From: Eledone cirrhosa
Taxonomy: Eukaryota
Assembly: GCA_964016885.1 (NCBI GenBank)
Contig: OZ024748.1
Span: forward strand, 23,064,001 to 23,128,000
Direction: 5' to 3'
Length of the DNA stretch: 64,000 nucleotides
This document shows positions 96 to 38,900 of the stretch, piece by piece (the stretch's first letter is position 1; each line of letters begins with the position of its first letter). The notes beneath the pieces are model-generated. The model ran no database searches and was not told the DNA's origin. It worked only from the letters and a program-made list of their open reading frames with translations. The translations under genes and the position numbers were made by a program.

Positions 96-142
<47 letters not shown>

Positions 143-144
<2 letters not shown>

Positions 145-337
145 GGAACGAGTGGGACCCCGACGGCTGAGCTCAAGCCGTTTCGACGGCTAATTCTGGA
201 CGTCCAGAATTAGCCGTTGAAACGGCTTGAGATCAGCCGTCGGGGTCCCACTCGTTCCTATTACCCACTCTACTATCCTAGGTATTGAGTTCTTTGGTGC
301 GTTATGGTCCACCTGGTTCCTTACCACATTTCCTTCG

Positions 338-338
<1 letters not shown>
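143..338 (+). mobile_element. Family A fold-back element (PLE/retrozyme-like): 118-bp palindrome plus ~78-bp tail, between (TA)n tracts
   Basis: Arms 143-201 and 202-260 are reverse complements with 2 mismatches. The right arm reads GAAA-CGGC..GCCG-TC, the 3' half of a hammerhead. Homologous copies lie at 34440, 37478, 38155 and 38596. Confidence 0.75.
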
Positions 339-422
<84 letters not shown>

Positions 423-23366: not shown

Positions 23367-23411
<45 letters not shown>

Positions 23412-23442
23412 AGATCAAAAGATGGTTAAAAGAGTTCCATGT

Positions 23443-23511
23443 ATTTTATTATGCGCATTTCAAAAACAAATATCATCATGAGATGACATTTGCGTTTTCG
23501 TCAGATAAAAT
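23443..23511 (-). ncRNA. Type I hammerhead ribozyme motif (inverted arm of family B)
   Basis: Reverse complement of 23637-23705. Confidence 0.75.
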
Positions 23512-23636
23512 AGGGATACATGATATGAAGGTTAAAACACACTTGTGAATAGTGAGGTTTTAAATCAACATATCATATGTTGATTTAAAACCTCACTATT
23601 CACAAGTGTTTTTTAACCTTCGTATCATGTCTCCCA

Positions 23637-23705
23637 ATTTTATCTGACGAAAACGCAAATGTCATCTCATGATGATATTTGTTTTTGAAATGCGCATAAT
23701 AAAAT
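23637..23705 (+). ncRNA. Type I hammerhead ribozyme motif
   Basis: Stem I ATTTTAT/ATAAAAT; core CTGACGA (23644); 12-bp stem II GCAAATGTCATC/GATGATATTTGT; GAAA (23687); palindromic stem III A-TGCGCA-T; cleavage site UA at 23698. Confidence 0.8.
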
Positions 23706-23726
23706 ACATGGAACTCTTTTAACCAT

Positions 23727-34439: not shown

Positions 34440-34612
34440 AGGACCTGTTTGTCCATCTACTGTGTGATCCGAACGCAGCTAGCTGTCGAAACGGCCGGAG
34501 CTCAGCCGTCAGGGTCCTGAATATTTTCATATTACCCACTCTACTATCCCAAGTATCGAGTGCTCTGGTGGGTTATGGTCCACCTAGTATCTTACCACAC
34601 TTTCTTTGTTAT
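34440..34612 (+). mobile_element. Family A element, diverged direct copy
   Basis: GTCGAAACGGC..GAGCTCAGCCGTC plus tail TTACCCACTCTACTATCC..TTATGGTCCACCT..CTTACCACA. Confidence 0.7.
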
Positions 34613-37425: not shown

Positions 37426-37477
<52 letters not shown>

Positions 37478-37480
<3 letters not shown>

Positions 37481-37594
37481 AACGAGTAGGACCCCGACGG
37501 CTGAGCTCAAGCCGTTTCGACGTCTAATTCTGGACTAAGTATTGAGTACTTTGGTGCGTTATGGTCCACCTGGTTCCTTACCACATTTCCTCCG

Positions 37595-37597
<3 letters not shown>
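37478..37597 (+). mobile_element. Family A element lacking the direct arm
   Basis: The left arm runs to CTGGAC and joins directly to the tail TAAGTATTGAG..; (TA)n flanks. Confidence 0.8.
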
Positions 37598-37716: not shown

Positions 37717-37724
<8 letters not shown>

Positions 37725-38131
37725 AGATCAAAAGATGGTTAAAGGAGTTCCATGTATTTTATTATGTGCATTTCAAAAACAAACATCATCATGCAATAAT
37801 ATTTGTGTTTTCATCAGATAAAACAGGAGAACATGATATGAAGGCTAAAAAACACTTGTGGATAGTGCAGTTTTAAATCAACATATCATGAAACTGCACT
37901 ATCCACAAGTGTTTTTTTAGCCTTCATATCATGTTCTGTTTTATCTGATGAAAACACAAATATCATTGCATGATGATGTTTGTTTTTGAAATGCGCATAA
38001 TAAAATACATGGAACTCCTTTAACCATCTTTTGATCTTATATTATGTATACTCCAGTCCTACAAACTGTAGAGTGCTTCTTATCCGATATCTGCATTGCT
38101 TTATTGTACTACAATAAAACTCACCTCCTAC
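37717..38131 (+). mobile_element. Family B fold-back element with hammerheads
   Basis: Inverted arms ~37717-37873 and 37891-38044, ~87-bp tail, (TA)n flanks. Confidence 0.85.
37938..38006 (+). ncRNA. Type I hammerhead ribozyme motif
   Basis: GTTTTAT-CTGATGA(37945)-stem II ACAAATATCATT/GATGATGTTTGT-GAAA(37988)-TGCGCA-TA-ATAAAAT; differences from the 23637 copy keep stem II paired. Confidence 0.8.
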
Positions 38132-38154
38132 ATATATATATATATATATATATA

Positions 38155-38327
38155 CATCAGGATGGATTCAGTTTTCGGTTTGAAACTAATTAGAACATTA
38201 TTCAACAGTAGAATATGGTTATATTATAAGGAGTCGGGACCCCACCCCGACGGCTGAGCTCTTGCCGTTTCAACAGCTAGTTCCAGACTAACTGTTGAAA
38301 CGGCAAGAGTCCCGATTCTTTATAATA
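38155..38327 (-). mobile_element. Family A-related fold-back element (different tail)
   Basis: CCCCGACGGCTGAGCTCTTGCCGTTTCAACAG..CTGTTGAAACGGCAAGAG with TATTATAAGGAGTCGGGA/TCCCGATTCTTTATAATA ends. Confidence 0.7.
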
Positions 38328-38344
38328 TATATATATATATATAT

Positions 38345-38552
38345 AAAAGAAATTTTGTATTTTATCTGATGAAAGCGCACCAAGATGGGCTTGGTCGCCC
38401 TTGAAATATATATAATAAAACAATTATGGTTTTATAAATATAGTTTCCATTTATTAATATATTGAATATTTATTCCAGTTATCTGTTGAGTGCTCTATAT
38501 CAGTTATAAACTTTTGAGTTTGTTGGAATCCCAACAAATTAAATATAACTTC

Positions 38553-38555: not shown

Positions 38556-38595
<40 letters not shown>

Positions 38596-38597
<2 letters not shown>

Positions 38598-38790
38598 AGC
38601 GAGGGAAAAGTGGTAAGGAACCAGGTGGACCATAACGCACCAAAGTACTCAATACTTAGGGTAGTAGAGTGGGTAATAGGAGTAAGTAAGACCCCGACGG
38701 CTGAGCTCAAGCCGTTTCGACGGCTAATTCTGTACAGAATTAGCCGTCGAAACGGCTTGAGCTCAGCCGTCGGGGTCTTACTTACTCCTA
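38596..38790 (-). mobile_element. Family A fold-back element
   Basis: Perfect 114-bp palindrome 38677-38790 plus ~80-bp tail 38596-38676; (TA)n flanks. Confidence 0.8.
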
Positions 38791-38900
38791 TATATATATC
38801 TATATATATCTATATATATCTATATATATATATATATGTGTGTGTGTATGTATGTATGCATGTATGTATATATATATGTATGTGTACACACACACACATA

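Follow-up and report, generated by a model that had tools for sequence, protein, structure and literature searches.

The head-to-head hairpin at 38597-38791 of the window (the whole 64-kb stretch of Eledone cirrhosa DNA analyzed here) is probably a stub insertion of a Hydra-type Penelope-like element (PLE), in which two cDNAs were started at two fixed sites on the RNA, ran off its end and were joined to each other. The stubs have a coding parent that carries a variant hammerhead ribozyme. The insertions have one tail each as a rule, their two arms are truncated independently, and edges at +1 and +42 recur among the arms. Element positions are counted from +1, the A of an AGT(A/C)C boundary that reads AGTCC in the parent.

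The focal unit comprises a 137-nt minus-strand arm (38597..38733, element +4 to about +140 when aligned to the parent pLTR and tail) and a 58-nt plus-strand arm (38734..38791, +4 to +61), whose CCTAT end runs into (TA)n. The arms meet without a loop on the self-complementary word GTAC (38732..38735), a junction likely to have formed by annealing of two cDNA 3' ends. The tail-less arm holds a hammerhead 3' half at 38749..38776 on the plus strand, in the order GAAA, stem III with a palindromic GAGCUC loop, GUC, and the 3' strand of stem I, with a predicted cut at 38771/38772. The tailed arm holds the same 3' half at 38691..38718 on the minus strand (predicted cut 38696/38695), followed by the end of the pLTR and an 80-nt tail. 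The tail (38597..38675, minus strand) lies between two putative reverse-transcription start sites, +61 and +141; in the parent, the same sequence runs on into the 5' UTR and the ORF. The unit is flanked by its (TA)n target on the left (38556..38595) and a (TA)n-rich target on the right (38792..38838).

Several other copies are present in the window. A sister copy at 142..340 (plus strand) has both arms from +2 and a zero-loop junction. In the copy at 37476..37596 the arms do not overlap: a minus-strand tail-less arm of +1 to +61 is joined to a tailed arm beginning at about +76. The copy at 34466..34612 (plus strand) is a tailed arm of subfamily A2 with a short inverted remnant, and that at 38155..38330 (minus strand) belongs to a diverged sister subfamily with a different tail. 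A 33-nt fragment at 497-529 comes from the stem III region of a diverged subfamily. The palindrome axes that an earlier note had placed at 201/202, 38733/38734 and about 38284 lie, as it said, 17, 15 and about 12 nt upstream of GAAA; the first two are zero-loop junctions of perfect palindromes with 57-58 nt per arm. Its observation that arms agree within each copy at positions that vary between copies was also reproduced in the window sequence. The 38155 copy, however, had been misread as a natural stem with a 7-nt loop and a U-G wobble. Its junction (about 38284) is asymmetric: one arm starts with AGT, 18 nt upstream of GAAA, in the manner of the other subfamilies at +1, the second begins some 8-9 nt later, and the supposed wobble is a single difference between the arms. 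The +1 of this subfamily was placed from the spacing because its parent was not found.

The window also contains other hammerhead families; its listed open reading frames are simple-repeat frames only. In family B, at 37719-38040 and 23406-23725, each arm of a head-to-head pair holds a minimal type I hammerhead that is complete and has a palindromic stem III; in both copies one arm ends some 66-70 nt upstream of the core. A further family (38357-38430, and about 24938 on the minus strand) has a complete CTGATGA...GAAA hammerhead with a TATATA stem III. Two direct copies of a retrozyme-like unit of about 300 nt, each with a hammerhead-like motif, lie about 430 nt apart at 56950-57270 and 57379-57675.

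In the 3.0 Gb of genome searched, subfamily A1 alone accounts for 11,800 palindromes (exact 11-nt arms, spacer of 0-30 nt) vs none with a reversed-pattern control; random 200 kb sampling yielded only 10 arm matches. The tail has 43,360 exact matches, vs 45 that continue towards the ORF. All 30 loci of the focal 194-mer that were read sit in (TA)n, two of them forming one tandem pair, and 14 of 15 insertions judged by eye have (TA)n on both sides. At L005/L006, two identical 194-nt units 296 bp apart have duplicated flanks and are probably a local tandem duplication.

The parent was reached through a 134-nt RT coding fragment lying between two arms at a randomly sampled locus (L100:9372-9505), which led to long copies. 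The parent unit is 3,097 bp long and has the order pLTR-5'UTR-ORF-3'UTR-pLTR, with an ORF of about 710 aa that encodes RT together with a GIY-YIG domain at its C terminus. Its pLTR ends with CCTAT at +61, and its 5' UTR starts with the 80-nt tail (+62 to +141). Translations of natural copies, read by eye, contain YRDDG of the RT and VIYQC...YIGLT of GIY-YIG, together with motifs of the Hydra clade (SDKTGN, the CxCX5C linker as CNCPDRSTC, CNLC and CKH) and no CCHH; RWR is found where the Hydra clade has RWK. A Pfam search of the parent protein gave no hits (0/3), as did PDB (0), and none of its 980 homologues is informatively named. The layout of EN+ Penelope-like elements is present, namely, a partial tandem pLTR, an inverted 5'-truncated copy and a one-sided tail. 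The 194-nt unit is the end segment of a predicted autonomous 3.1-kb element, which is of the Hydra type by its motifs and layout.

As described in the available part of the account of the Hydra clade (Craig et al. 2021, PMC8557442), its members likewise have one ORF (about 710 aa, with RT, and GIY-YIG at the C terminus), DKT, a CxCX5C linker, CxxC and CxH around conserved E and N without CCHH, (TA)n targets, a pLTR hammerhead, an inverted 5'-truncated copy and a one-sided tail. The Eledone unit differs in length (3.1 kb vs 'generally' less than about 3 kb) and in its tail (80 nt vs 30-40 nt). No hammerhead listed for the Hydra families in the part of File S2 at hand, Hydra-1_Obim included, resembles the Eledone form, whose core is mostly U3-A8, whose loop II has 37 nt and whose stem III has 5 bp (PMC8557442). 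Non-LTR retrozymes are defined, in the portion of the source available, as non-coding tandem units with a complete hammerhead in each (bioRxiv 10.64898/2026.07.22.740005); such an identity was ruled out, since a stub has only half of the ribozyme, its layout is inverted and its parent is coding. One family A insertion (L309:4101-5042) contains a 314-aa frame from a different Penelope-like element of the GIY-YIG type. Foreign pieces at the 5' ends of arms come from other repeat families too (L069, L070, L073, L074), which suggests template switching at the RNA end.

The motif next to the axis had been taken for the 3' half of a type I hammerhead whose 5' half was lost to the inverted copy. This is correct: the 5' half is kept in non-inverted parents, and only there. 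Uninverted copies with an upstream 5' half were found where the note expected them, but their core is mostly U3-A8 instead of CTGANGA. The parental 5' half consists of ACCCC, the core U3-U-G-A-N-A8-A, a G, a 9-bp stem II and the 37-nt loop II, and the palindrome axis lies in loop II, as claimed, at its 3' edge. Among 53 family copies (of 56 matches), the core is U3-A8 in 46, C3-G8 in one, U3-G8 in two and a C3/A8 mismatch in four. RNAalifold gives the three-way junction of stems I-III unaided; in an alignment of 10 related, hand-picked copies, 91.9% of cells pair and four pairs change on both sides, and the covariation score of these copies is equalled by 4 of 500 shuffles, which is modest evidence. 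Searches for canonical CTGANGA gave 23 and 26 matches, and the 25 of the 26 that were read were all junction accidents. The conclusion from this failure, that the motif is not a hammerhead, was dropped once the parent showed the variant core. Rfam returned nothing at gathering score for the window and, for the parent, no hammerhead and one weak unrelated match. U3-A8 is a described hammerhead variant of Penelope-like elements (Cervera and de la Pena 2014, PMC4209133, available in part). The Eledone form shares with that of Schistosoma the U3-A8 covariation, a long helix II and a palindromic loop 3, and differs in that its stem III, of 5 bp, is stable and its loop II is long, with a likely start site (PMC4209133). 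The parental 5' half, the RNAalifold junction, the covariation and the known U3-A8 variant together explain why the reading as half a hammerhead was right. The 9-nt loop III (38759-38767 in the focal unit) has the self-complementary GAGCUC in all subfamilies; it could dimerize RNAs and is a junction hot spot. A different family at L209:2224 and L118 (minus strand, 546) has the same U3-A8 core with a palindromic CTGTACAG stem III.

The ends of the arms were called by script for the 96 matches to the tail that come first by position along C1. An inverted partner accompanies 76 of these and ends at +61 in 67 of the 76; natural upstream sequence is found in 8, and the other 12 have neither. Breakpoints of short copies are not uniform, in agreement with the earlier note: the longer arm begins at +1 to +7 in 59 of 71. 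The motif at this edge, YYAGT, is kept while the rest of loop II has diverged between subfamilies, and a TATA-like word is found at -29 to -31 in A1 and A3, not in A2. YYAGT at +1 resembles the initiator (Inr) consensus. In the AGTAC variant, a G is found at -1 in 16 of 34 arms by script (20 of 28 listed non-perfect loci) and in 15 of 37 by eye, and in a mostly AGTCC list, by eye, at only about 3 of 21 clear ends. The possibility that this G is a parental variant was rejected, since the 100 listed parents have 96 C, 2 T, 2 A and no G at -1. We read the untemplated G at these cDNA ends as a copy of the cap; a search of the open-access literature for papers on G of this origin found none. Internal Inr promoters have been reported for Penelope, in the parts of the two papers available (PMC3846280, PMC2377424). 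Position +1 is likely, from these sequence features, to be a capped transcription start inside loop II. The RNA would then have a 5' end without the 5' half of the ribozyme, so that stem II would not form on the template of the stubs.

The same edge could be explained, with two primed cDNAs as before, by RT pausing within loop II of a longer RNA, or being blocked there by bound protein. A weak apical hairpin is predicted in A1, A2 and A3, and its 3' strand, at about -3 to +8, overlaps +1, so that a pause could contribute; moreover, many arms keep one to four natural upstream bases (including natural T or C at -1 to -3), making the edge a few bases wide. However, a pause does not account for the untemplated G at -1, where additions at +42 are mostly A, or for the retention of YYAGT despite the divergence around it, and RT passes the stronger stems III and II and reads through +1 in 8 of the 96 copies. 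We consider a pause or block unlikely as the origin of the edge.

The earlier note had proposed instead that nascent cDNA snaps back on stem II and primes its own second strand, so that the fold of the ribozyme fixes the breakpoint; the apical hairpin could serve in the same way. Self-priming has been put forward for junction palindromes of Penelope (Arkhipova et al. 2013, PMC3846280, as far as its available text goes), the axis does lie in loop II, stem II is real, and the arms are mostly concordant. Yet the junction predicted for stem II, with loop II kept between the arms, had no match in an exact-pattern test on subfamilies A1 and A3, and of the 58 loci listed from a class with 357 forward matches, four agree exactly and one nearly with the fold-back expected of the apical hairpin. 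Snap-back also requires one arm to be nested within the other. Each arm holds sequence absent from the other in 21 of 71 short insertions with a tail-less partner and in 11 of 26 long ones. In these 21 short insertions the tail-less arm reaches at least 10 nt further 5' (the reverse is seen in 3), although 2-3 of the 21 may be internal deletions owing to errors of automated end calling, and in 10 of the 71 the arms do not overlap at all. The copy at 37476..37596 of the window is a case of this kind. In individual instances, arms could look non-nested because of a deletion that followed insertion. The long pairs (30, selected because both arms extend past -13) have clean junctions in 27; the longer arm is the tail-less one in 11 and the tailed one in 11, and the two are equal in 4. 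The 54 breakpoints of long pairs range from -15 to -2784 (one at the reference edge), only 6 of them inside -48 to +18, and in family B the inversion lies some 66 nt upstream of a hammerhead that is intact. Junctions often have loops of 0-1 nt, and the 12 nt of cDNA around the focal junction form no stable fold with DNA parameters. Snap-back thus failed as a general route and is very unlikely to explain the family; it may hold for well under 1% of copies. What stands of the idea that the ribozyme sets the breakpoint is a minority class at its cut site, not stem II.

The joints themselves are consistent with annealing of two like cDNA ends: perfect palindromes other than those on GTAC also center on self-complementary words. 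The zero-loop GTAC junction is found in 22 of the first 50 of 730 AGTAC palindromes vs 1 of 47 for the comparable AGTCC junction. It might be thought that a few master palindromes are copied whole, the stubs being a non-autonomous element, since the focal 194-mer, junction included, is 100% identical at 32 of 40 candidates scored. But the GTAC junction occurs in two haplotypes, each of which also has many other junctions, and junctions of the AGTCC variant are highly varied. The recurrence across haplotypes means that this junction forms repeatedly and is not inherited from one master; a single palindromic master was accordingly rejected, and copying from a few has very little left to recommend it. 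The least probable explanation is that the boundary is a 3' splice site (TTTAG/T or TTCAG/T) and the stubs copy spliced RNA or a splicing intermediate: YAG follows a pyrimidine-rich stretch in A1, A2 and A3 parents, and Penelope of D. virilis has an intron near its promoter (PMC2377424, in the part available), but the arms include the AG, starting at its A, and about 150 listed junctions have no constant exon or leader upstream.

If two cDNAs are joined, they could be copied from one RNA or from two. With 5 of 47 arm pairs left out because they could not be parsed, the arms were identical over 28 nt in 16 of 42 insertions and differed at no more than one position in 28 of 42, as compared with about 6% and 11%, respectively, for arms of different insertions. 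Rare variants are common to both arms in L341, L342 and L351. Insertions carry a single tail in 39 of 41 cases, in 26 of 27 among the long pairs and in 15 of 15 in a further set. On the other hand, arms differ at three or more positions in 9 of 42 insertions, and L268, L322 and L236 join two different recurrent haplotypes, indicating that two RNAs are sometimes used. Both arms are likely, as a rule, to be copies of one RNA, though equal concordance is expected if each cell has a single active source.

A second edge lies at +42, the predicted cut site of the ribozyme. At 245 palindromic loci, both arms reach the GGGG after the cut with a spacer of at most 14 nt. In tallies made by eye, as for this class throughout, 20 of the first 50 have a foreign, mostly A/T spacer between arms that both start exactly at +42; 17 joints are blunt and 13 read through. 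A search with a wider span (184 loci) gave, among its first 50, foreign bases with both arms at +42 in 17, a blunt joint in 12, a single arm at +42 in 8, a near-blunt joint in 5 and read-through in 7; in the one remaining case of the 50, which serves as the downstream control, both arms were at +46. In an upstream control (95 loci) none of the first 50 had a foreign spacer and 43 were centered on the self-complementary word of loop III. The additions at +42 are untemplated and mostly A, and their occurrence at one base suggests that RT ran off an RNA end without a cap, which would mean that the RNA is cleaved in vivo. The class, a few percent of the size of the +1 class, probably records self-cleavage of the ribozyme in vivo with copying of the 3' product, to judge from these junctions. 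A stall at the base of stem III is a possible cause of the edge, and blunt CCCC/GGGG junctions are explained equally well by +41/+41 plus a CG overlap and by +42. In the part of the Anolis study at hand, no RNA-seq reads were found at the hammerhead cut (Frangieh et al. 2024, PMC11167929).

We envisage the following mechanism. The element protein would cut the (TA)n target on both strands, and both target ends would prime at +61 and +141, where the RNA has a 2-4 nt match to TA. Two reverse transcriptases would then copy one RNA, each reaching its 5' end or stalling, and the cDNA ends would be joined either by annealing at microhomologies or, once untemplated bases had been added, by blunt end-joining. 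In short copies the tailed arm is the truncated one more often (21 vs 3), as could arise if the follower is blocked by the leader on one RNA. Stubs outnumber long copies, which would be expected because both priming sites lie in the first 141 nt, at an end without a complete ribozyme. For PLEs at large, we lean towards insertion by obligate twin priming, with a dimer acting on both target ends and at two fixed sites of a single RNA, such that junctions would map the capped start and the ribozyme cut.

Twin priming is familiar from L1, where both target ends prime on one RNA and the inverted piece is joined by microhomology; the internal primer site varies, and the pieces rarely overlap. In Eledone, unlike L1, neither site varies, and the two arms usually carry duplicates of one 5' segment. 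The Poseidon protein of Anolis carolinensis cuts and extends both target strands in vitro, and two internal RT start sites on its RNA bound the tail, as proposed for Eledone; AT-rich targets are also common to both, and a Poseidon dimer is predicted (Frangieh et al. 2024, PMC11167929). In the text of that paper that was available, no link is drawn to head-to-head copies and no difference in start site is seen between strands; Eledone differs in its near-strict rule of one tail per insertion and in the class that starts at the cut (PMC11167929). Penelope of Adineta vaga resembles the Eledone family in its head-to-head pLTRs, junction palindromes, optional tail and an Inr-like motif in the pLTR, but the self-priming model proposed there predicts nested arms, and Eledone arms are often non-nested (PMC3846280, available in part). 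The origin of tandem and inverted Penelope insertions has been called undefined and the role of the ribozyme unclear, in the available part of the account of the clade (Craig et al. 2021, PMC8557442). The layout of the Eledone insertions is that known for PLEs (PMC8557442, PMC3846280), and the mechanism of formation proposed here differs from the published self-priming. Among the papers listed by searches of the open-access literature, none was found to propose twin priming, run-off stubs or cut-site junctions for PLEs.

The family supplies thousands of young junctions that separate twin-priming from self-priming models, and it allows the bases concerned to be named exactly: +1 for the cap, +42 for the cut, and +61 and +141 for priming. 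If the proposed mechanism is true, each head-to-head junction is a fossil map of RNA 5' ends, and only read-through RNA can self-cleave. The same junctions would then be genome-scale evidence that a U3-A8 Penelope hammerhead is cleaved in the germ line.
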